From Moniliella sp. 'wahieum' (Eukaryota): 64,000 nucleotides of DNA. Below the pieces are notes generated by a model. It was not told the origin of the DNA, did no database searches, and saw nothing but the letters and a program-made list of their open reading frames with translations. Both the position numbers and the translations under genes were made by a program. Position 1 is the stretch's first letter; each line of letters begins with the position of its first letter. This document shows positions 1 through 50,709 of the stretch, in pieces. The stretch spans positions 124,001 to 188,000 of the forward strand of contig RSEE01000110.1 of the NCBI GenBank assembly GCA_003971905.1, read 5' to 3'.

Positions 1-370
1 GAAGCGGGGCCTGAATCTTGAGTGGCGCCCGCGGCCGCAACGAGGTAGCGTGCCCGTTCCTGGCGGAGCGCAAACTCGAGCATCTTAACACGGCGCATCA
101 GATCGGTCTTGGCATTCTCCATACTCGCTCGCTCCCCTTCGAGCAGGGCAATGCGGGCTCGCATCTCAGCGCGTTCGATCTCCCATTCGTTGCGTTCGCG
201 CTCGTATTGCCGCCATTCGGATTGGAGGTGGTGGAGCACCCCAGAGAAGGTTATTGGCTGGTGTCGCTAAGACCCATCAGGCCGGACCCGCTTCCCGTCC
301 CGTTGTCTCCAATCCCCCCACTTCCACTTGCACTCCCGTTCCCGTACTCGTTGGCCATCGTTGTTACCAT
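1..370 (-). CDS. FAR8: Striatin (STRIPAK scaffold), 5' part, runs off the window edge
   Basis: My minus-strand translation gives TFSGVLHHLQSEWRQYERERNEWEIERAEMRARIALLEGERASMENAKTDLMRRVKMLEFALRQER, the striatin N-terminal coiled coil. ATG at 370; one frameshift near 252. Not shown in the ORF track. Confidence 0.9.
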
Positions 371-1578
371 CCAGGAGCTCCACTTGCTCGCCACGTCCAG
401 AAATCGAAGCTAGAAAGGACCAGGGGGGCTGAGCTAAGCAAACGAAATGTTCACAAATGCAATTTACTCCACATTTTTATACCAGGCACCGCTTTACCAT
501 CAGGCCAATAGTCCTTCAGAATAAAAGAACGAGTATAGTATGATGATGGCCAGTGAGTACTGAGTATACAATTTGGAGAGTGGGTGGGGAAGGCAACATG
601 TAACGTAGATCACTAGTGACATGTGGCCCGACCTCTGCTCCTGGCGTTACGCGTTATAGCCCGCATACAGGTCAACGTTGAGTGTTATGGGGTGGAATAC
701 GTTGTCGAGTGCTGAAAATCTTCGTGCGCAAAACTCAGAGGCTATGCCAACAACTTGTGGGTTAGAGGGATAATGGTAATTGCTCCAGAGGAGGCGGCTT
801 ACTAGCTGGTGGAGAAAACGTCAAAAAAAGTCACAGGAGCAGAATGACTGTGTCAAGATTGACGATCGGATGACATGCATAACACGGATAATGGAACCGG
901 GACCAGATAAGTTCGCGACGGTCCAATTCTTTTGTGGCAACGGAGGCGGAATGGACATCCTTATTCATTGATCGCCGAGACCATCGATCATCGACCAAGC
1001 TGTCCCTCAGTGAAAGTCACTAATTGATGAGACCTGCAATCCACTGGTGGTGGTAATGATCTAAGCCAACCAGTAACGCCTACAGAGGAACATCAAATTT
1101 CAAGCAGGGTGTCGCCACCAGGGGCTAAGCTGCGGAACAAGGAAAAAACAGCAGAGTGAAGACAACGGAACTCCTAGGCCCGAGGCCCGAGGAGGAACAG
1201 AAGGGATGTTGGCCGGAGCACGAGCCAGCCGGTGGCTCAACGCTAGTGAGTGACTATGACTAGTAACTAGGAACTTCGCTAGTGCGCGTGAGCCTCACGG
1301 GTAAGTCTGAGATATCTGAAGGTCTGAGAGGGTGACCGTGACGCGCTGATACCTGAGGCTCAGGCCCCTGAGGTCGGGCGTTGATTGGTTGATTCAACTG
1401 GGGAGTTTGAAGCTACTCAGCTTGAAGCTTGAAGCTCTTGGCAAATGGGTAGAAATCCACCCGCCTACCACCGGCCACCGATCGCCAAACGCAAATCACT
1501 TGCAGGCCCCAGCAACAAAGAAACAAATAGGGTTGGCCTGAACGAGTACATCATGCGGTGATCGGTGGGTGGCTCTGG

Positions 1579-1996
1579 ATGCATCATGCATCATGCATCA
1601 TGCACATCATCGACATCATCTGCATCTGCATCATCCTGCATTGCATGATCGATCCATCGACGCGCGACGAGCGAAGCGCATGACGAGGACGAGTGACCGA
1701 TGACCGGCCAGTGACCGGAGTGACCGGTGACCGGTGACCGGCGACCATTGACCAGGTGGCACGCGCCACGATCCTCTTCTTGTTAGATAATCCAGTAGTA
1801 CTTCAACTTTTTCCCATGTCTCCCTTCTAGCCATGTCACTCTCCTCTACGTCTACTCGTACTCAGTACTCACTACCAACGAATCTTTTACCTACCTGAGT
1901 TATCAACTTGAGTACTCGTTGAGTACTCGGTGCTACTCGTCTTCCCTCGACTATACAGCGACGTTTTTCAGCTGTGATGCATGATGCATGATGCAT
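1579..1996. repeat. Cluster of 7-bp-period palindromic arrays: (ATGCATC)n, (GTGACCG)n, (GTACTCA)n, (GATGCAT)n
   Basis: 1579-1604, 1711-1746, 1858-1871 and 1975-1996, read directly. Confidence 0.9.
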
Positions 1997-2743
1997 GTGG
2001 ACTGTCTTCGATGCGTGAATCTTGTCAGTGCAGTCCTTCGCCACCGGGCCACCATGCATCAGTGCATCCGTCCCATCGGGCGGCGGCAGCGGCCCAGAGC
2101 CAGCGTCAGGCCTCAGACGTGGCCCAAAGCTCTAAAGGATTCAGTCGGTGTGTGATGGAGGGAGACCGCTCCTGGGCTGCATTCCCAGCCACATCAATGG
2201 GGCGCGGGGGCGCTTCGGGGCCCGGAGGCTGTGCTGCCGCGGTAGGCGTTGGGTCAGGCCAGCACCACACCAGTCTCGTGTGCCCTTCCGCCGCGAAGCG
2301 CTATGGGATCAGGAGGGCTATGCTATATGCAGACTATGGCGCTGAGCCGCTGAGCCGGGGGTGCCTGGCTGCAGATCTGCTGAGGACGGGCACGGGGGCA
2401 GTTTCGCTGAGATTGTGGGTGAAACTAGGCCTCGTGCTCTGCGCTTCCTCGGCCGTGGCTTGGTGGCCAGTGACCGGACCAGTGATGTTCCCGGCTAGCT
2501 ACTGGCCATGCTCTCCTGCACCTGAAGCTGGACAGAAGCTGGAAGCTTGACTTCCCAGGCAGAACAGGGGCCAGCTTAGGTAGCGGGAGGAGGCGGGGCA
2601 CTGGCGGAGATTGCCGGTGGGCCATCCTCCACCTCACCAGTCGTTGGCTGCCTTCTGCCCACACACTTCGTCTCCCCCCACCTTCCTCTCTGCCACCCTT
2701 TTGAGCCACCTCCCCATCCACGTTCTCTACCCGCTTCTTGGGC

Positions 2744-4684
2744 ATGTCATATCCCTTTGCCCAACCCACGACGCCTGAGGCGGACCATTTCCCCTCCGAA
2801 GTGCCCCACCTGCCCACCTCTCCTACCGGTCCCAAGATTTTTGCCACGCAGCCCCTCAGTCCCCCGGTTGATGTGGGTTCGGCCGATCCGTACCTCACCA
2901 CCGCAGATGGTCTAACCCAGCGCACCTCTTACGGCCGGGCCTTCACTCCCTCTCCCTCCGCCAGTCCACTCACCAGCCCCCTTCCCAGCCCCAATCTCGG
3001 AACCAATGACGGGCCTCTGTCGCTCGCGAGCCACTATCTCCCCGGCAAGATTGGCCGGATGCACCGTCTTGGCTCCCGTCGCCACCGCGGTTCGTCGCCC
3101 TACGTTGACCAGCAGCGGAGGAGCCACTACGAAGCCATCGGAGAGGACGAGGAATTTGGTGCCAGCGCACCTGCCACTCCTCGGGGAAGCACGTTTGGTG
3201 CGGGTGCCTTCCGTAGGGGTGATCCCAGCCGCTGGTCCACCCTCTCGGCCAATTTGGCTGCTTCCAAGAACACGCCCAAGCCCACTCTTCAGCAACTTGC
3301 TGCAGAAGACGGCACCCTTGATCTCCCGACCTTGGGCGGGCACCGTTCTCCTACCCCTTCGCTCCGGCCCCATTCGCATCTCAATTCCATCGCATTGCCG
3401 AAGCAAGGCGGGGGGAGGGATGCATGGGGTCCGAACGGCGGTGGCCATTCAGTCTTGGGCGCGGGTGGATTTGAAGACGACGATGGAGTCAATCTCGGCT
3501 TTGCATCGGGCGCAACCCCCGCCGCGCAAGAGGCTGCGCTACGGCACCGGACCGTGTTTAGTGTGACGGCTAAAGAAGTGCTTGACACTTACAAGGACGA
3601 CCCCGACACGCAAGAAGAGCCCAACTTTGTTCATCGCCTCATGAACAGCGTCTTTGCCCGCGATTCAGACGGAAAGGGCAAACGCCGTCTCCGCTGGAAC
3701 AAGTTCAAGTGGGCCCTTTTTGGTGCCAATACGCTGCTGACCCTGATCTCCATTGGTGGGCTGGTAGGCACCATTCTTACCTGGACCAACGTATGGGCCC
3801 GCTCGGACATTGTGCGGACCGTCAATCGTACTGAACTCATTCTCGGAACTACCGCCGCGTCTTTGATGTTTACCACGTCAATCATCGGATGGGCGGGGAT
3901 CCTGCTCAACAACCGTGCTTTCCTTGCTGTTTGGACCCTCCTCCACTGGATCTGTTTCGCCTTCCTTGTCGCGCCCGGATACATTGCCTACAAGCGGCAC
4001 ACCTTTAACCTTGAAGGGAAAATGAACGAGGCCTGGTCTCGTTCCCTTGGTGTGGACGGCCGCAGGATGGTGCAAAACACGTTAACCTGTTGTGGCTGGT
4101 TCAACCCTACAATCGAGGCCAGCGAGAGCAGCCTGTGTTATGCCCGTTCTGCTCTTCCCGGGTGCAAAGGGCGGATGACACGGTTTGAACGCATGGCCTT
4201 GCGGTACATTTACACCTGTGCTTTCTCACTCGTCGGCCCGCACCTCGTCCTGATTGTAATTTCCCTCTTGTCATCCAACCACATCACCTATCGTTTCGGA
4301 AAGGGTCTCACTCCCCCTGCCTATCGTCTTAATTCTACCACGGTTGCTCGGATCCAGCAGGACTTTATGTCCAAACTTACCGATATGTACGGACCCGAGA
4401 TTGTACCGGCGGTACTGGCGACCCAGAAACGGTTGCAGCAGGACCGCCAGAGCCTGCTCGACGATAACCGGAGCGATACGCAGCTGATCCCTGCGGCCAG
4501 TCGAGCCATTCCGGACTCTGCTTCTGAAGCATATCTTGCGCCTCCTTCAAGCCACTCTCACCTGGGCGACTTGGGCGATCCTCTCAGTCCTCTGGATGCG
4601 TCGGAGCAGTCGAATGCATACGCCCAGGCTTACGGAAATGACCTCTATCCTTACTCGCCATCCCGGGAACAACTCATGCGGTAA
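2744..4684 (+). CDS. TSP2: Fungal tetraspanin, Tsp2 family (long cytoplasmic N-terminus)
   Basis: Intact ORF with a long S/P-rich N-terminus, 4 TM helices, and a CCG motif plus further Cys in the large loop (LTCCGWFNP...CYARSALPGCKG). Confidence 0.85.
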   Translation: MSYPFAQPTTPEADHFPSEVPHLPTSPTGPKIFATQPLSPPVDVGSADPYLTTADGLTQRTSYGRAFTPSPSASPLTSPLPSPNLGTNDGPLSLASHYLPGKIGRMHRLGSRRHRGSSPYVDQQRRSHYEAIGEDEEFGASAPATPRGSTFGAGAFRRGDPSRWSTLSANLAASKNTPKPTLQQLAAEDGTLDLPTLGGHRSPTPSLRPHSHLNSIALPKQGGGRDAWGPNGGGHSVLGAGGFEDDDGVNLGFASGATPAAQEAALRHRTVFSVTAKEVLDTYKDDPDTQEEPNFVHRLMNSVFARDSDGKGKRRLRWNKFKWALFGANTLLTLISIGGLVGTILTWTNVWARSDIVRTVNRTELILGTTAASLMFTTSIIGWAGILLNNRAFLAVWTLLHWICFAFLVAPGYIAYKRHTFNLEGKMNEAWSRSLGVDGRRMVQNTLTCCGWFNPTIEASESSLCYARSALPGCKGRMTRFERMALRYIYTCAFSLVGPHLVLIVISLLSSNHITYRFGKGLTPPAYRLNSTTVARIQQDFMSKLTDMYGPEIVPAVLATQKRLQQDRQSLLDDNRSDTQLIPAASRAIPDSASEAYLAPPSSHSHLGDLGDPLSPLDASEQSNAYAQAYGNDLYPYSPSREQLMR

Positions 4685-5077
4685 CTTTTCTTTTTTCATG
4701 GTCATTGGTCACGGGGAATGTTTTTGCAGGCTCCCTCGCATCTCTTTCTCCTTATGGAGACTTCTTCACCTTCGTTTTTCTGCCTCACTGCCGATCTCTC
4801 GTTTTTTGCTGCATTCTCGTGTCCCTCTGCGTTCGTCACCCGACTATATCGTCTTCCACTATATCATCTTCCACAGCGTGCCCCAAAGTGCTCTGCAACG
4901 CAATCAAAACTGCTTCAATCGTGTGTCCTAGATCACGTCCATTTCATTGATAGAGCTTAAGGCTGGGACAGGGGAACGTTACGTCTAAACGGCTAACCGT
5001 TCATCTTGCGGAGGGTTACTTGGGGGCGCCACTAAGGTCAAGGAACCAGGGGGATCGCCAGGATATCAGGACCCTCC

Positions 5078-5236
5078 TGTCAGCGCCATCATGCATGCAG
5101 CTGATCACGCATCACGCATCGCTTGTTCTATCCGACTCTCCTCTATGTTCTGCCCCTAACGGGCTCCTCTCTTGGAATAGATCCATCACCTCCCTCTGTC
5201 TTCTTCTTTCCGTAGGCTTTTGTCCTCGCATTAACA
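5078..5236 (+). repeat. 5' LTR (159 bp)
   Basis: TGTCAGCG...CATTAACA; identical by eye to 7486-7644. Confidence 0.97.
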
Positions 5237-5246
5237 GGTTGAGCCC
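5237..5246 (+). promoter_or_regulatory. Primer-binding site, half-tRNA-iMet type
   Basis: GGTTGAGCCC directly after the LTR. It matches the usual fungal copia PBS GGTTATGAGCCC (tRNAiMet anticodon region) but lacks AT. Confidence 0.7.
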
Positions 5247-5346
5247 ACACTATCCTCTGAGTAGGCGGAGACTACACCTCTCTCGTCTGCCCGCCTGAGC
5301 CCTACTTATATTTTTTTTCCCACCTACCCCCACCCCACACGGCTGA

Positions 5347-6794
5347 ATGCCTGGTCTCCGTTCCGGAGCCGATACTGCTTTTCCACCCCTTTCCAAGAAG
5401 AAGCGTAACCCGCGCGCCGAAAGCATGTCTGCCGACGCCATTCTCCCTGTCGAAGCTACCCATGAGGAGCCCGCAGTTTCCATTCCTCGTGTCGAGGCTA
5501 CCCAAGAGGAGCCTGCAGTTCCCCACGCCACCCCCGCCGCCCCCGAGCGTCTGGACGTGAAGACGCCCAAATTGCCCACGATGGCACCCCCCCCCTCTGT
5601 CGAAGGAATCATCACTCCCCGAAAACCAACCTAACCCACCATGAGCTCATGTTCCTGTTGCATCTTCAAGATTTACACCCCGAGTGGTCTACGGAACAGG
5701 CACAAGATGCGATTCACGACCCCGCATTCATGCACGAATTTGCTTACTTTGCCCGCAAGTACCGCATTCAAGGTACCGCGGCGCTGATTCCCAATTGGTT
5801 TCCCCCAGTTCGAACATCTGCCCCACAGCCCCAGCAGTGTTGACACTTTCCCCCTCTGGAAATCCCTTCTCATCAGACACGTTCTGTGGAGGAGGAGATG
5901 ATTAGGGCGCTGGCTAAAGGAAACAGCTTACCCTCCTGGGAACTCGGAACGACGCACTGGCTTGATTATGACTATGATACGCGCAACCAGCTCTCGGCAT
6001 ACCAGTTCCTGAACCTAGTCGTCAACGGCCCCTCTTCCCCTGAGGAAGAGCTGATCGACAGGTGGCTCGAGCATGTCCTTTTGACCAAATGTGACTCGAC
6101 CACGCAGAGTCATGTTGCCTGCGGTTCGGCCTCAGGCCTGTACCGCAAGATGTGCGAGCGCAATCGTCCCACCCAGGTCAAACTTGAGAGTGATGTCAGT
6201 TCCCGCCTGGACACACTTAAGCCTGCGGCGCATGAGACGGCGCGGAAGTTCCTTGCCCGCATCGAGCGGATCGTGGGTATGGGTGAAATGATTGGACTCC
6301 CGCTCAGCGTTCGTGCCTGGAGCGTTCTTGCCAATAGCTGCCCTGAGCCGAATCGCGTGAAGGAGCAACAGCTCCAGGGCAAGACCCGGAGCCAAGCGCT
6401 GCAGTTCTTGAACATCGAGGACACAGTGCTCGTCACCAAGGCTGTTTCCTCGCACAAGGGCAAAGGAGGGCGCGCAGAGCGCAATGGTACCTGCCGTCTT
6501 CACCCCAATGGCAGACACGCAGAGGCCCAATGCTGGTCACTGCATCCGGAGTTGAAGAACATGCCGATGTCGAGCAGCTCGAATAACTCCAATACTTCCC
6601 ATTCGGCCACAGCAGTTAGTCGCTACGCCAGGCAGGAGGAACCCCCCGCCACCGATGTACTCGCCCGGCTATATGCCGACGTACTACCCCTCACCTCTGG
6701 TTTACCAGCTCCGGCATTCCCACAGCCAACTAGCCCTACCGCGAACGCGCAAGGCCTAGCCCCCGTTTCTTTCCCGCCTCCTGATCGCCAGTAG
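5347..6794 (+). CDS. gag: Copia Gag (frameshifted in its 5' part)
   Basis: ORF pieces 5347-5634, 5649-5843 and 5886-6794; zinc knuckle CRLHPNGRHAEAQCWSLHPEL; ends at TAG 6792-6794. Confidence 0.75.
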
Positions 6795-7014
6795 GAACTC
6801 GCGGCAGCCCTGTCACAGGGGTTGCCACCACCCACCACTGCGTCTGCGCTCCACAAGCTGGTAGTTGACAGCGGCGCGACGCCGAGCATGGTCCGCTCGC
6901 CCGAGGGTTTCATTTTCCTCGAGCCTGCGACTGGGTGGGTTGAGTTGGCTGGCGCGTCCAGGAAGCTTGCGGTGACAGGCTGTGGGGTGAAGCGGGTTCG
7001 ACTCCCGGCTTCCA
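6795..7014 (+). pseudogene. Copia aspartic protease (N-terminal part, in frame with gag after the TAG)
   Basis: LVVDSGATPSMV...VELAG...LAVTGCG; truncated by the internal deletion. Confidence 0.8.
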
Positions 7015-7419
7015 CAGTCGACCGCTGAAGCTGAGATGATGGCTATTAGTGAGGGCGCCCGCGACGCTCTCCGCATTCGTAACCTCATGGTCGAGCTTCA
7101 ACTAGTACCTTCCAACTGTCCGGTGGATCTCTATAGCGACTCGGCTGTTGCCCTGTCAATTATCTCTCGCCCTGGTTTCATTGGACGCCTTCGTCATATG
7201 GACATTCGCAACCATTGGTTCCGCGAGCATGTCGATTCGGGGCGCATTTTGTGGCACAAGGTTCTTGGAACCGAGAACCCCGCGAATGATTTTACCAAGC
7301 TCCTACCGTATACGGTTCAACGCTCCAGTGTAGGTCGCTACCTCACGCTCACGCCGGATCCTGGTGGGGCTGAGGAGACTTCCCGCATCAAGCCCATTTT
7401 CGGCTCAGATTCCTCCTAG
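7015..7419 (+). pseudogene. Copia RNase H (C-terminal part)
   Basis: QSTAEAEMMAISEG...LYSDSAVAL...RHMDIRNHWFRE...TENPANDFTK match the copia RNase H consensus motifs. Confidence 0.9.
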
Positions 7420-7470
7420 CCAGCTGGCTCTTGATTTGTCACTCTTCCAATCTCGTCGGATCCTAGCGTC

Positions 7471-7485
7471 GAGTCGTGGTGGGGC
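7471..7485 (+). promoter_or_regulatory. Polypurine-tract-like plus-strand primer
   Basis: G-rich GAGTCGTGGTGGGGC directly before the 3' LTR. Confidence 0.6.
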
Positions 7486-7644
7486 TGTCAGCGCCATCAT
7501 GCATGCAGCTGATCACGCATCACGCATCGCTTGTTCTATCCGACTCTCCTCTATGTTCTGCCCCTAACGGGCTCCTCTCTTGGAATAGATCCATCACCTC
7601 CCTCTGTCTTCTTCTTTCCGTAGGCTTTTGTCCTCGCATTAACA
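7486..7644 (+). repeat. 3' LTR (159 bp)
   Basis: Identical by eye to the 5' LTR; followed by the TSD CCTCC. Confidence 0.97.
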
Positions 7645-8058
7645 CCTCCGGCTCACGCCATCCGGTCCCGTACCCTAGGAAGCGCGTGTGGACACGGAGG
7701 AACGTGGTTGACATCCGAGCGAGGAAAATATATCTACACGCTCACATAATTTTGCATCCACCAACGGAGTTTCCAAGCCCCAGGTCCCTGCTCCACAATC
7801 ATTGTCAACAGCTGTTGGTGTGGCTGTCTTCGGCGTTGGCTGTCGGCGTTGGCTGCACCAAGCACCCTTGGATGAGGACGAAAGTGAAACAACCATATGT
7901 GCCGAACTGGCCCTGTGTCGGACGCTGCGGTGCAACTTTGAAGCGGTAGGGTTCCGCTGCGCTCCGCATCGGGCGTGGGGCTTGTCAGACGTCGCATGTG
8001 TCACCGGGGCGCCAGGAGCGGGGGCCTGGTGCACCACCACCACCAGCCGTTCTGCACG

Positions 8059-8898: not shown

Positions 8899-9448
8899 CC
8901 TATGAGTCCTGTTTACTCCCGCTTGCTCCTGCCCCTCTCATCTGTTTTTCGCTCGTACCTCCCCGCCTCCCACTGGACCTTCCCTACCTCAGCCTTTTTC
9001 TGTATTAGCCCCCTGCGCCGCCTGGGGTCGCCACGATTGAAGCTACAACGATGGCAAGTGACATGTCAGGTTGGGCAAAGTCTCGATTGCGCCATCATGG
9101 GTAAATACCAATCGTTCCCCTGCCATGTCTGTGCCGGCCCCGCTGTGAAGATCAGGTGTATTACAGAGAAAAGTCCTTTTGATGTTAATAGTCCATAGTG
9201 GTATGGGCTTTGAGGGAGCATTGCCAAAGTGGATAGTTGATGGGGGGTCCTTTTGACAAGGGAACCGAAAGAATGCATGAAACTGTGGCTTAGACTAGCG
9301 GCAGAGGTTATAATATCCCGACCATTAGGGTACCCCACTGCCAACTCGTGACCCCGCTGAATCATTGGCCAGTCCTCCCGAGCTTCAAGCTTCAAGTTTG
9401 GAGTACCCAGCCCTAAACCAAGGGAGTGCATGAGACGGGTTTCAGATC

Positions 9449-11290
9449 TCAAGCTTCCGCTCCAGCAGATTGAGCTTTTCGACGAGGAATGCCAGTGGCC
9501 TTTCCTTCGTGGACTTGCTGTGCGAACGCCAGTCGGCCGAGACGGACCCTGCGAGCGGTGGCGAACCAAGAGCCTGTGAGCGAAAGGGCCCACCATGCCA
9601 TGGCAACGGGGATGCTATACTTGAGTGTGTTCGTCAAGCCTCCATCAGAGAGCACACACATCTCGAGATTGAAAGTGTGGTAGCTGGGCCAGAAGTAGAT
9701 CGTGCGGTAAAAGTGGTGTGCTGCGTGAGGGAAAGAGAAAAAAGTCGGTGGAAATGGGTCAGTAGTTACTCCAAGATAACGATACTGGGTGTTGTAGCGC
9801 ATGATCTGATGCCGGGCAGGCTCTGGATCTAATGTGGTCTCGATTCCAAAGAAGGAAGGAATGGGGGGGGGACGTACTGAGTTCGGGGGCCGCTAAAGTC
9901 GATGTCACGTTAGACAAGGTCCACGTGACCACGACGAGGGGAAGAATGGGGAGGGGGACGTAGGTAGTAATCACGTCCATTACCCCAAATTGGATTGCGT
10001 TGTTAACCCAGATAATGGGCCAGAGAGAAAAGAAGGTGCGAGCGACGGGAATATCGTACTGTGGGCCTTTGAAGACCAACACAAACCCGGTGCCGCAGAG
10101 GGAGGTGAGCAAGGGCCAGACGAGGCCCAAATGCCAACGAGCAACATGGAGTCTAGCACTGGGCATGGACGCCCACAAGTTGTAACCATTGGACATGGCG
10201 TTAAAGCCCATCATGAAGAAGAAACTCATCAGAATGTTCAAGACGACGGCCACTGTTCCGAGTAAAGGTGCATTGTACGGGAGTTGACTGCGGCCGTCGG
10301 CATATTGAGGGGTTCCGACAGCAGCAACCGCGGCCGCTGAGCGAGCTGTGGCACTTGTGCTTAGCACACTTGATGAGACGTTGGCTAAGGCTGGCGCAAC
10401 CACATTGGTACCAAGGGACACCTGGAAAGCTGAGAGCAACTGGTTGCCACTGATGAGCAAGTTGCTCATGTAAAATACATACTTGCGAATGGGCAAAACC
10501 AAGGTGTGAGCTGTGGCAGAGGGATTGTAGGCAGTGGCCGTGCCATTTATCGCTGCCATCCAGCGCTCGGTGGCACCTGATTCGATGTATACTGCGCTCC
10601 AGTATTTTCCCTTCCACACGTCATGGGCGAGCTGGTGTGGGGACGTTTCGTTCGCCGAGTGAATGGTGTAGGTGGGATAGCCGTGGGTGGCATTGAGCTT
10701 AGCTGCGGTGGCCACCAAAGCTTGGCCAAATGCACCCCCATCAAAGTCGACAACGGGTACTTGGACGCGTCGAGTGAAGTAAGGCTCGTGGTAAAAGGAG
10801 CCAAAGAGGTAACAGACGTCGATCCAGAACACCGCCATAATCATAGCGGCCATGATGCATAACTGGAAAAGGAATTTGGGGGCAGGCACTGGGGCACGAA
10901 TAGTTTTGGCAAGGTGTTCGATTGTGGATATGCGTTTTGGTTTTGAGTGAGCCTCAGCGTGTTTACCACTGCCCTCCTCCGTGTTCTCGCCGCCAGAAGT
11001 ACCCTCAGTATTCCCATTGGTCTCCTCAGCTTTGATGCCGTGATCGCCATTCTCAGTAGGCGACCTTACGGAAGTACTATCTGGAGACCTGACCTGATTG
11101 AAATACTCGGTCCCCCCAGGCCTTCTGGGCGTGCGTGAGGCGGGCGAGATCTCTGGGGTTCCGGAGATCTCATCGACCTCATTGACCTCATCGACCTCAT
11201 CCCCTTGATGGAGCTGCGGGGGCACAACGATGTTGTTAGTATCGTGGCTCAGTGTCGACCACAAACTGTTGTTGCGCTGTTGGGGGGCAT
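9449..11290 (-). CDS. SNG1-like / DUF3533 membrane protein
   Basis: YLFGSFY..., VVDFDGG, VWKGKYWSAVYI motifs followed by multiple TMs; one intron near 9715-9876; start inferred across a frameshift. Confidence 0.8.
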
Positions 11291-12283
11291 AATGGGGGCG
11301 AGATGGTGACGGATGGTTGTGTGGAAGTCAAGTTTCAAGGGAGCGGCGGCAGGATGTTCGCACACCGAGTCTTGAAGGCCACCTGGGCTTGCCTGTCTGA
11401 ATCTGCATCTGACATTCTGACCATCGATCCTCGGCCTCATCGGCACCCAGTCTAAGGTCAGCCGGTCACCGGTCACCCGTCAGGCCTGGGCGCCCTGCGC
11501 CTGAACCGCTGAGCCTCAGCCATGATGCATGATGCATCAGTACATGCATCAGTGATCGTTTCCCCGCCGTCGATATCACACGTCACATGTCACACAAATG
11601 GCACATGCCACACACCGTTGTCCCACCACAGCTGCCTTCTTCGAGCTTCAACAGTGCGAGGCCGCCCTGTTTCGCCTCTGTTCTGCCCCCTTCCTGTTGC
11701 GCCTTCGGGCTGCCTTCCCCTTGATTGCATCCACACCACGTCGCTCCTGCCTTGCTCGCCTCCCACAATTGTATGGGACTCTTTGCGCTCAGGCCGCCGG
11801 CTAGGGCCAGCGCTCACGCGGTCACAGCCTCAGGCCTTAGCGCTTAGTCTTCGAACCGAGCGCTGAACCAGGTTGAACTCAGCCAACTCAGCGCCTGCTC
11901 TGTGTGCTGAGGCGTTGAACTTAACGCTGAACTCAACGTTGAGTGTGTTGAATGTGCTGAACCCAACTGGACCATCGTCACCTAGTATTGTAGGGCGGAA
12001 AATAGCACACTCCGTATGAAGGTCGGACGCAGACAGCGCTGTCAGAGTTACATATATGCAACCTCCGGACCGGAAAATATCTCCCTACTGTGGCCTATAC
12101 TACTTCGATCTTTACCGTATATTTGCCCGGTGACACGTGGTTGTACTATCCAAAAAAGGCCTCTCCTTGTTTTGGCAACGTCGGCAACTACCCCTATTAT
12201 ACTTGGCAACGGTTCTATGCTCATACCCTTGCTTCTTCATTTGTACTGGTGAACCCACGATTTCAGAAGGTTAAATGAATACC

Positions 12284-22878: not shown

Positions 22879-23325
22879 CAAGTCGGGTTCGATTGGTTGG
22901 CACCTCAAGGGAGGGTGAAGAGCGAGCAATGGGGGTGGTGGCGCGCTGGAAGAAGACGAGAAGGAGGAAAGATAAGCAGATGCTGTGCTGATCCTCCCTC
23001 AGTGTGTCCAACGCCGTTTGCAACAGCAGCCGGCGTTCGCTGCAACCGAACCACGCCAGAATTCCCTCCGCTTTTTTCTTGCTTTTCTTTTCCGTTTTCT
23101 GTGACATGTGATGCATGATGCATGATGGCGGTCAAATACATGAATTGAAACGTTCAGCTGCTGTATCGGTCGGTGGTTGCAGATCCTGTGGACCTACTGC
23201 TTGCCTTGTTGCACTCGACCCCCCAGGACCGCGTCGCCAATTATATGCTAGCCACTCGTGTCTCGTCATCGCATTCGTCAGGTAGCAGCGCATCGACACA
23301 GCACTGGCCCTGCCCGCCCTCACGC

Positions 23326-35612: not shown

Positions 35613-38095
35613 CACACTAACGCCGAGTAGCGCCATAGTAGTAGCTCTGACTAGTCCCACACAGCAGCTGAGAGGGCGCCGAGGAAGACCAGGAAAGCGT
35701 GCTCCCACGCTCTACAAGCGGACATTGCCTTAGGCCTTATGGGGGACACGGCGCCAGTAGGGTACGCAGCCAAGACGCGGCTGTGGAGAAGCGAAGGGTG
35801 CAGGGCAAGTGTGCTGTCGTGCGACCCGGAGCAGTCCGGAGGAGGCACTGGCGTGTGCAGCATCTTAGGTGTGAGGGTGTTCACCTCGTGCAGGCAGGTG
35901 CAGGCGTGGGCACGGGGGCTGCCTCCGCCACAGAAGGCCCTGCGGCACCGGGCCGCCAGTCTCAGACTGCACCAGAGGCGCAGACCGAGCGAGGCAGATA
36001 AGGCTGCTGGTGTGCCTGCACACTGTATCGTCCAAGCAAAAAGGATGGGGAGTTGTGCCCCTGTCGGCCTCAATAGCAGTACCCGTGGCTGCTCTCCTTG
36101 GGGCTGCTGGGCGAGGCTGCCGCCACACACGTCGGTGGGTACGGAAAACTACTTGCGAGTAAGGTGTCTCTGCACGGGCCAGCTCGCGCTCGCGGATCGC
36201 CCTCTCCACATACACAGACGCCGTGCGGGCCGCCTTTCACTGCAGCACATCGCACCACAGCGCACCTCAGGGTGTTCCTGCTGCCCCATAGCTTCTTATG
36301 GCCATTAGGGTTGCACTTGGCAGGGCTGCGTCGGCTAGGTCCAGTGGGCTACTCCTGTCCCTTTGCCTTTGCCGACCGAATGCATTCCCACGCCGGTCCT
36401 CCGCCGCGCGCGTCGCTCACAAACAAGTGCTGACATGCTGACACGCCTTCGGCCATCCGGCTTCCCCGGAAGATTCCTTCGTTCGCCTTTCTCTCCTTTT
36501 TGGCTGCGATATATGATGGCAGATACGCCCCCGCCGTTTGGTGCTGTCCGAGGAGACGGCATCAAACGCAGCCGCCGCTCGCAAACACCGCAAGGAAAGG
36601 GTTCCAATAAGGATCGACAATGCTAAACGCGCTAAACGTTACACGTTATTTGAGGCTCCTGATGTGGGCCCTAAAAAAGAGGGAAGGGAGGTAACTCTTC
36701 CATGGCGCCTCCCACGGTCTGACGCTCGCGCCGGCGAATGGAATGCGCGAGCGAGCTCGTGAGCAAACTCTGATGCATCTGATGTCATATGCTACAGTCT
36801 TCGTAGCACACGCAAAACCGCCTCTCAGACAAAACAGATCCAGGACCCGCATTAAATAGGGTGCGAAAAAGCACGTGGAAAAGCGCATGCGTGAGCACCA
36901 CGCGACACAGAAAGCTACTATACTTCTACTTTTGAAGTTACCATTTGTCCCCACACAAGTTCTCGAGACCCACATACCCGGAATGGACCAAGCTCTACGT
37001 TATTGCTGTCGGTATACGAGAAGATACATGTGTAGGTAGTAATGTGTGGGTACAGGGCAAAACCCCCATATCGCAAAGCAAAAAGCAACCCGGGCGCCCC
37101 CCCCCCCACCCACATATACTGACACCCCCTCCCTAATGGATCGGCGCTGCATTGGGCCTGCCCAGCCATAACTTTCTTAACTATCAAAGAACCACGAACA
37201 CATCTGTCACGGGCGACAGCGGGTATAGCCGAGCCCGGCCGAGCACATTCTCTCCCCTCGTCTCCTCCCTGTATGGCCTGTGGGTTAGGTATTCGTCAAG
37301 ACCGGACACTGAATTGAGCCTCTTGCAGGTCTGAACCCTCAGGACGCCGAGGAAACTTAAGTCCCTTTCGTATGGCTGAGGTGATTAATTCGTGCGTGAG
37401 CTTCTGAGTCCTTGATTTTATTCTTCTACTTCAATTATTTTGTCTTTTTGGTCTTGGATGCAAGTGAGCTTCAAAAGTTGAGCCCCCGGGTCTGGACGTC
37501 AGTTTCCTGATCGGACGGAGTGTCTCGTATTCGTTGTGAGAGGTTATCCCCTCATGCCTTTTTTGCGTTTGGCTGAAGGCGGAGAGCCTGCCCTGTACTT
37601 TGATGGCCTTTTCTGGGTGACTGTTCCCGTGTTCCTGGATGGGTGTGGGAACCTTTCCCTACTTGGTCTGTGCTCCTTTCTGGGAGGTTTGTGTTTTGTT
37701 CTGTGACAGGACCGGCCCTGTCTTTACCTGCGCCAACCGTCTGGCTAACTCTTCAGGCTAGGCCCGCCCATGATCATGGAGGCTGGAGAAAGGCTTCTTT
37801 AAAGGATACAACGGCATGAGGGACGTAACAGAGCGAATTGACCGCGAGCGCAAGTGATAGGTCGTGAGATCCGTTAGAACAAGGGGCAATAAGAGAGTAC
37901 GAAGAAGACAAGCTGCAGCAAGAAAAGGGAGGCTGCTAGTGCGAACCACATCACAGAGATAGTATCAGTTACAAAAATGGTATTTCCGTGACCATAGCAC
38001 GCGGTCTAATCCTAGCATCGTGCGAAGTAAACAAAGATAAACAAACACTGCACAGCAGTCACGGGAAAGCGTGACTCAGTGGGGCTCAATTTTGT

Positions 38096-45940: not shown

Positions 45941-46212
45941 GTTGGACGTTGTGATGAGGTCGATGAGGGGAGGGAACGGAGATAATGCAGAGCTACACGA
46001 GCGAAGACAAAAAATGAATTTGGTGCACGTGCTGAGGTAAGGGCGCACGTGCCATTTGTGCCCGATGATCGATGAGTGGGGCACACCAGCATTTCAACAT
46101 TCAATTCCACTCGCTTACCTCAGCCGGCCCCATCTTCCTGGCAAACTTCTTGCTTGTTGGCGCCAGCCATCCACGCGGGACAGCGACGCTGACACCGACA
46201 ACGACGACGACC

Positions 46213-48252: not shown

Positions 48253-48526
48253 ATGGCAAAGAAGAAGAAGCTACCCTCAAGCAAGGCCATGGATGCCAAG
48301 AAGGTCTCGCGCCGCAGTAAGGTCAAGCCCTTTGTCAAGGCAATCATACAATCACCTATGCCTACGCGATATGCTCTGGAACTCGAGGGTTCAAGGGCGT
48401 AGTTCTCCTGACTCATTGAAGGAACGTGAAAACTAAGAAGGACGCCGTGAAGGCGGCCAAGAAGGTGCTGGAAGAGCGGTACCTGACCGGGAAGAACCGC
48501 TGGTTCTTTCCCCCTTGCGTTTCTAA
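48253..48526 (+). CDS. RPL27: 60S ribosomal protein eL27, partial or disrupted
   Basis: KKVSRRSKVKPFVK...PTRYALEL...LEERYLTGKNRWFF.PLRF*; the N-terminal KOW half is not visible; dense deletions. Confidence 0.8.
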
Positions 48527-50669: not shown

Positions 50670-50709
50670 TCACCGGTCACCGGCTTCACCGGTCATGCAT
50701 CATGCATGA
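50670..50709. repeat. Mixed TNA+palindrome heptamer array
   Basis: TCA-CCGG-TCA-CCGG-CT-TCA-CCGG-TCA-TGCA-TCA-TGCA-TGA. Confidence 0.9.

Follow-up and report, generated by a model that had tools for sequence, protein, structure and literature searches.

Palindromic TNA heptamers in non-coding DNA of Moniliella sp. 'wahieum' are best read as a natural record of DNA-break repair

The spacer between the divergent striatin and tetraspanin genes of Moniliella sp. 'wahieum' (positions 540-2000 of the 64,000-nucleotide stretch analysed here, hereafter the window) is filled with units in which the triplet TNA alternates with a 4-bp palindrome, and it raises the question of which process could write one rule in so many different sequences. 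A preliminary description of these units had put forward three hypotheses: stacked footprints of transposons with a 3-bp TNA duplication and a core derived from the element ends, a hairpin or template-switch repair process, and sites for a factor reading TNA at 7-bp spacing. The window covers positions 124001-188000 of contig C110 (assembly of 69.5 Mb in 223 contigs), and the identities that had been given to the two neighbouring genes were borne out by domain matches on both sides:

3-266, minus strand: striatin coding stretch, the left, divergent gene (PF08232, E 4.2e-34)
2705-4684, plus strand: tetraspanin reading frame, the right gene (PF00335, E 2.9e-9)

The locus is present in four copies that form two pairs, a hybrid tetraploid-like arrangement. 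Sisters within the pairs are 3.2% and 3.6% diverged, and divergence between the pairs is about 11% in the alignable parts only.

All ten examples quoted in the preliminary description sit at the positions assigned to them, to within one base. The run given as (TGA-CCGG)n is present, but its strict 7-bp phase is broken by one 9-bp step, from 1712 to 1721. The features of the interval are listed below, unstranded except for the LTR; a heptamer is written ab-TNA-xy, with a prime denoting the complement.

554-563: putative scar TGA-GTAC-TGA, core from the right flank; the sister copy differs
610-623: TCA-CTAG-TGA-CATG, palindromic cores, off the simple rule: the first core mismatches the outer flank and the middle bases are complementary
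647-656: putative scar TTA-CGCG-TTA, core from the left flank
672-681: TCA-ACGT-TGA, no flank template; one extra base in the sister copy
984-994: TCGA-TCA-TCGA; the sister copy is 11 bases longer here
1025-1242, minus strand: old solo LTR of a multi-copy family, recognised by alignments, ends and 5-bp duplications
1093-1102: TCA-AATT-TCA, +7 within the LTR, as expected in period and triplet but with a core off by 2 bases
1257-1270: TGA-CTAG-TAA-CTAG, core from the right flank; the middle bases differ
1419-1436: AGCT/TGA array, longer by 67 bases in the sister copy, in part through a larger tandem duplication
1579-1618: TGCA/TCA array, then a 9-bp form at 1607-1618 (7-bp duplication plus 2 inverted bases)
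1712-1741: 9-bp form at 1712-1723, then a CCGG/TGA array; about 21 bases shorter in the sister
1858-1871: GTAC/TCA pair; the sister copy has one 7-bp unit less
1975-1997: TGCA/TGA array; a CATG unit at the first position in the sister copy

Comparison with controls confirmed that the 7-letter repeats between the two genes are real. TNA-N4-TNA carried a palindromic core in 51 of 138 cases in the window, forming 39 clusters, against a mean of 6.6 (sd 2.6, maximum 16) in 200 dinucleotide shuffles of the window. The interval 540-2000, with 14 of 21 palindromic (shuffles: mean 0.32, maximum 2), is the densest 1461-base stretch in the window, as had been claimed. The enrichment is specific to the triplet and to the 7-bp period. 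In the window and three homeologous stretches, 167 of 456 TNA flanks (36.6%) enclosed a palindrome, against 3.8-7.7% for the remaining 15 X-N-Y flank triplets, including the self-complementary ANT, CNG and GNC (4.8%, 5.9% and 5.3%). Other TNA spacings in the window gave 4 of 138 at 6 bases and 0 of 84 at 8 bases; a spacing of 2 bases gave 27 of 91, where chance is about 1 in 4. The 12 cores originally listed all occur in the window, with AATT and TTAA besides, and all 16 possible palindromic cores were found in a 544,171-base sample.

The near restriction to non-coding DNA also held. Gap-free blocks conserved between the subgenomes, used as a proxy for coding DNA, had 0 of 29 palindromic in 40,930 bases, against 133 of 321 in the remaining 92,712 bases. 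An assembly artefact of this contig does not account for the pattern, since 9 of the 14 interval motifs recur in the separately assembled sister copy. Of 139 motifs compared with this copy, 3.2% diverged, only 67 are shared and 72 differ, which indicates that the process ran while the sisters diverged.

To establish what is duplicated at these junctions, same-triplet pairs were counted in a 476,033-base sample and middle bases, cores and mixed arrays in the sample of 544,171 bases; both consist of two long homeologous stretches and loci picked through repeats, rather than a random draw, and the larger holds one 3-kb locus twice. Among same-triplet TNA pairs, 387 of 723 were palindromic. The core was copied from a flank in 339 of these 387 (121 from the right only, 121 from the left only, 97 from both), and the other 48 cores matched neither flank. 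Because array ends could yield left/right symmetry trivially, isolated pairs (n=240) were tallied separately. Their use of the two flanks was about equal (87 left, 78 right, 35 both, 40 neither), and their best flank match of 0/1/2/3/4 bases occurred in 18/22/103/47/50 pairs, peaking at exactly 2 bases, whereas the 15 control triplets dropped from 0 (248/178/95/23/48). The core is, as judged from these matches, taken from the host flank and not from element ends. The original formulation of one rule with many sequences is right. Longer forms were also present in the smaller sample: the 8-bp forms numbered 31 and 39 of 340, the 9-bp forms 38 of 455 for TNA against 0-6 for other triplets, and the 11-bp forms 2 of 285.

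A scan for a duplication plus inverted bases, with no sequence motif assumed and compared with one shuffle, gave a similar picture. Observed and shuffled counts were 496 and 77 for 5+2, 74 and 23 for 6+2, 73 and 4 for 7+2, and 10 and 1 for 8+2, and the 7+2 cases had T at heptamer position 3 in 74% and A at position 5 in 78%. The 7+2 excess, the drop at 8 and the T and A at positions 3 and 5 hence indicate a duplicated unit of 7 bp, centred on TNA, with 2 inverted bases. At the level of sequence, the junctions shown by these tallies consist of a direct repeat of 5-7 bases surrounding T-N-A and of 2 inverted bases, taken from either side equally, in non-coding DNA. The middle base was identical in 467 of 583 palindromic pairs in the larger sample. 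Complementary middle bases, present in 60 of the 583, are not directly given by an excision model and may reflect later fold-back correction.

Alignments between sister copies place individual changes next to this rule. The clean cases read TNA-xy to TNA-xy-y'x'-TNA-xy, or the mirror form with ab. Indels of 6/7/8 bp numbered 29/42/19 and 38/45/21, with a peak at 7 bp. Clean 7-bp indels (n=61) comprised 12 exact non-tandem fits, 9 of them on TNA, 15 plain tandem copies and 34 that fit no model exactly. Exact non-tandem fits made up 2 of 28 clean 8-bp indels (2 on TNA) and 6 of 32 clean 9-bp indels (6 on TNA), and a looser fit, allowing one mismatch and either short allele, accommodated 34 of 55 indels. 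Polarity, taken from the other subgenome for 50 indels, was short-ancestral in 3, long-ancestral in 1 and gave no direction in 46; polarising within repeats yielded 8 insertions of 5-7 bp, only one of them near the rule. The direction of change, from short to long, is weakly indicated by these comparisons. Indels of 1 bp make up 1064 of the 1859 sister indels, and some of these are probably assembly error.

The sole event polarised inside the interval lies within the solo LTR at 1025-1242, which is found in the sister copy too and is missing from the other subgenome pair. The LTR family has 547 candidate copies, 40 of them scored, and all 4 other copies that were aligned have 5-bp duplications; the solo LTR is the substrate of one scar and stands outside the mechanism. 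The +7 at 1093 does not occur in the sister and is lacking in 17 of the 24 alignments with other LTR copies that cover the site. Its core is AATT against a predicted AGCT, and it is one of the 3 of 14 interval motifs with no flank template (610, 672 and 1093). Further instances of the rule lie elsewhere in the window, again unstranded:

2343-2353: 8-bp form (7-bp duplication plus 1 inverted base), just beyond the interval
11830-11846: mixed-core array, GGCC then GCGC; two separate in-phase events
23102-23125: mixed-core array, CATG then TGCA
36769-36784: 9-bp insertion relative to the sister; 7-bp TNA-centred duplication plus 2 inverted bases
46066-46075: +7 relative to the sister, core from the left flank
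50686-50709: mixed-core array, CCGG then TGCA

Core triples in the larger sample were mixed in 26 cases and uniform in 79, and a mixed-core triple needs two separate events. The 583 palindromic pairs in 544,171 bases correspond to about 1 per kb, some 520 above the rate of non-palindromic cores, which suggests, by extrapolation from a non-random sample, a genome-wide total of some tens of thousands.

Taken together, these data make it probable that a hairpin-forming cut-and-paste DNA transposon with a 7-bp TNA-centred duplication left the units behind as healed excision scars, its hairpins having been opened 2 bases from the tip. A 7-base staggered insertion at ab-TNA-xy would duplicate the heptamer, and on excision each flank would be sealed into a hairpin, flush with the element border. 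A host nuclease would then open each hairpin mostly 2 bases from its tip, creating the 4-base 3' tails xy-y'x' and b'a'-ab. End joining that keeps one tail and loses the other would produce TNA-palindrome-TNA (+7) in two mirror forms, and joining that keeps part of both tails would produce +8 and +9, less often than +7. Each scar would itself be a fully palindromic site, so that re-insertion and ordinary slippage could extend arrays, and a new hit with the opposite flank could give rise to mixed cores. On this reading, the repeats would form a natural archive, closely packed, of repaired DNA breaks and not a regulatory code. The footprint class of the first of the earlier hypotheses thus stands, without its 3-bp duplication (here 7 bp) and its element-end core (339 of 387 match the flank).

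Several elements of this scheme are known from other systems. Flank hairpins have been documented for hAT, Transib, RAG and MULE transposases, with host enzymes opening them (PMC5499845), and Artemis opens coding-end hairpins mainly at +2 (PMC2175297). The scars are like V(D)J coding joints and Transib (RAG1-type) products in that a hairpin would form on the flank (PMC5499845), and opening at +2 predicts the 2 inverted bases seen here, with the last flank base kept (PMC2175297); they differ in that the products are fixed throughout non-coding DNA. The 7-bp TNA-centred duplication of the scars and the CTC termini of the candidate element described below also depart from the RAG/Transib type, for which duplications of 2-5 bp (the range of the CMCT clade, PMC12730594) and CA..TG termini would be expected. 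The junctions point to a flush flank hairpin with 2 P bases as the main product, which would make the RAG/Transib likeness one of working only. Footprints of Ac/Ds (hAT) likewise combine a duplication with short P-nucleotide insertions and few dominant products, two types accounting for 35 and 18 of 128 clones in Candida (PMC5873905). According to the same paper, Ac footprints have the complement of the border base at their centre, whereas the joint types tallied here were 298 flush, 11 of the Ac-type offset and 30 plain double duplications. P-nucleotide footprints are a known phenomenon; the present ones stand apart by being 7-bp, TNA-centred, flush and of the +2 form, and by having accumulated genome-wide as a repeat class. 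In Ustilago maydis, a related fungus, many small intergenic '10-bp repeats' have been suggested to be transposon footprints (PMC4081816), the same origin as is proposed here; compared by description only, they could be related to the heptamer scars. No description of the TNA-palindrome heptamer pattern was found in a search of mainly open-access literature.

The agent of the putative scars was sought in the genome. A pattern search for CTC-type ends with a 7-bp duplication returned 6 matches in the genome and 0 for the control. Three of them are elements with terminal inverted repeats (TIRs) of 4970, 4945 and 4856 bp, with both TIRs and subterminal repeats, located elsewhere in the genome than the window and bounded by a perfect duplication CA-TCA-AC in unrelated flanks. 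These elements, known here by their ends and flanks, were picked by that heptamer, and one of them is reversed relative to it, which shows that CA-TCA-AC is the target and not element sequence. A fourth match has one TIR only, with no far end in the 500 bases examined, and an unselected further copy has the TNA-centred CA-TCA-CC at the one end seen. The two remaining matches had no TIR and were set aside as chance. Beyond the pattern matches, the sampled DNA held no CTC-ended element with a 7-bp duplication, and the candidate TIR motif had 0 matches in metagenome contigs. About 270 kb of sister alignments, surveyed for large indels, contained no insertion with a 7-bp duplication and no filled-versus-scarred site.

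The best candidate for the agent is this 4.9-5.0-kb TIR family, which has CTC termini and duplicates 7 bp centred on TNA, or else older relatives that were less specific; the link to the scars is conjectural. Candidate elements and scars match in duplication length and TNA centre. The scars comprise 201 different target heptamers among 349, with CA-TCA-AC and CA-TCA-CC accounting for 1 and 4 of the 349, and the target range of the candidate copies, chosen by one heptamer, may be too narrow for them. If the family is narrow, the scars would stem from broader or older relatives, or the retained copies would be a biased sample. The family shares long TIRs with subterminal repeats with fungal EnSpm/CACTA elements, and Tnp2-like genes are present in the genome; its CTC termini and 7-bp duplication differ from the CAC termini and 2-3-bp duplications given for EnSpm/CACTA, from the CACTG start and 3-bp duplications of CNIRT6 and from the TA duplications of CNEST (the latter two from PMC12810828). 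The CMCT clade makes 2-5-bp duplications and has CA..TG ends, again unlike the candidate; duplications of 7 bp are made by hAT7 and Kyakuja, and hAT7 families with such duplications exist in rusts (all from PMC12730594).

Profile searches gave no transposase for the three candidate elements: neither the Tnp2 profile (PF02992) nor a search for Tnp2-like proteins matched them. The profile had 3 matches in the genome, all outside the candidates, on contigs C17, C34 and C127, and none lay within a convincing TIR pair with a duplication. The Tnp2-domain gene of C17 (G000:C17:556181-557982), without TIRs, is retained, at 92%, by both members of one subgenome pair but is missing at the matching place in the other, which raises the question of whether it has been immobilised or domesticated. 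Contig C127 carries a large inverted duplication (G000:C127:102702-118000), one arm of which lacks 2.6 kb of a Tnp2-like gene. The Harbinger transposase profile (PF13359) had 0 matches in the genome, the control matching in 1 of 14, and the Harbinger-type agent envisaged earlier accordingly finds no match. The hAT dimerisation domain (PF05699) also had 0 matches, as did its control genomes, and a loose first look with the MULE/KDZ/Plavaka profiles PF10551, PF18758 and PF18759 likewise returned 0 matches, with none for the KDZ control either.

Three other candidates were rejected. A 3512-bp candidate with an apparent 7-bp duplication (L054:2055-5566) turned out to be two oppositely oriented copies of a dispersed repeat on either side of a ubiquitin-like gene; the pair is also present in the homeologues and mimics a TIR element. 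A 117-bp MITE family with CAT-type termini (81 candidates, for example G000:C46:76225-76344) is flanked by 2-bp duplications at 18 of the 21 copies whose ends are intact. A very young transposon (L145:1420-6033 on C16, with further copies on C19, C20, C3 and C153) is represented by five copies 98.9-100% alike at four distinct sites, and its 3' flanks are not TNA-centred at 4 of the 4 distinct sites. It has a GTG end, long stop-free frames and motifs resembling the CMCT clade, with no Pfam match and no longer homologue found, and it is possibly active.

The same tallies bear on explanations other than excision. In an unlikely one, no element needs to be resident: a DDE nuclease, either domesticated or acting abortively, be it a RAG-like or Tnp2-like enzyme or an abortive integration, would cut open non-coding TNA sites with a 7-base stagger, and the ends would be filled, hairpinned and rejoined without insertion. 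The abundance of scars, about 1 per kb (583 in 544 kb), while 7-bp-duplication elements are rare and absent among large indels, speaks for such cutting, as does the retention, in one subgenome pair, of a TIR-less Tnp2-domain gene in both copies; there are, however, genuine TIR elements whose target geometry is the same, and two-flank hairpins, which would follow directly from excision, would need extra steps after a bare cut. If true, it would amount to an undescribed endogenous mutational signature that rewrites promoter regions and makes new heptamer microsatellites. Replication template switching, with a nascent strand folding back over 2-3 bases and returning via T-N-A microhomology, is distinctly improbable. 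It would yield short inverted flank copies, and the 60 pairs with complementary middle bases agree with it, but ANT, CNG and GNC are equally self-complementary and fall far below TNA, a control that largely refutes it; moreover, most pairs (467 of 583) keep the same middle base and duplication length ends at 7. Only the hairpin part of the earlier repair hypothesis is therefore retained, since plain template switching explains neither the use of TNA alone among four self-complementary triplets nor the cut-off at 7.

That the units are selected binding sites for a factor reading TNA at 7-bp spacing would fit their restriction to non-coding DNA and their peak density in a divergent spacer. Every one of the 16 palindromic cores is found, cores are copied from the local flank, more than half of the motifs (72 of 139) differ in a copy 3.2% diverged and one arose inside a dead LTR, which leaves this third hypothesis very improbable; secondary regulatory use of single arrays is conceivable. 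The Tc1 footprint TA-CATG-TA is a direct repeat around an element-derived, fixed 4-bp palindrome, and the scars likewise have a direct repeat around a 4-bp palindrome, with a core that is flank-derived and takes all 16 values. A Tc1-like origin, in which a Harbinger-type agent leaves a 3-bp TNA duplication and 2 bases of each element end, agrees with the 10-bp shape and with the identity of the middle bases and could explain the 48 of 387 untemplated cores, including that at 1093. It would require 16 different element ends that chance to match the flank, would give no 8- and 9-bp forms and has no PF13359 match; flank templating refutes it as a general rule, and we give it hardly any credence. 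Equally remote as an origin is ordinary slippage of chance palindromic heptamers. The plain tandem copies (15 of 61 clean 7-bp indels) are of the kind it makes, and larger duplications lengthen the 1419 array in the sister copy, whose 67-base expansion indicates that duplication acts too, yet non-tandem junctions, 2-base matches and mixed cores are beyond its reach. Slippage lengthens arrays without starting them.

Should the excision reading be true, one genome would hold tens of thousands of fixed excision joints, a figure extrapolated from a sample that is not random. Sequence alone would then reveal how an uncharacterised transposase lineage staggers its cuts, on what its target is centred and where its hairpins are opened. 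The scars would also offer many natural examples of fungal end joining at RAG-like ends and would make it possible to trace how new tandem repeats arise. The same reading cautions against taking such arrays for regulatory motifs.

The comparison of the four copies also revealed further differences. A 2.8-kb insertion at 4934-7726 of the window, with an identical 160-bp direct repeat inside and no target duplication seen, occurs in none of the three homeologues. The segment at 9346-12243, which includes a DUF3533 gene, is found in the window's own pair and is not aligned in the other subgenome pair. At 48281, synteny to all three homeologues is lost abruptly in mid reading frame, through either a rearrangement or an assembly misjoin. 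An aldo-keto reductase marks the organism as a smut-related basidiomycete, its best named single-domain matches, at 50-51%, being in Ceraceosorus, Parajaminaea and Violaceomyces.
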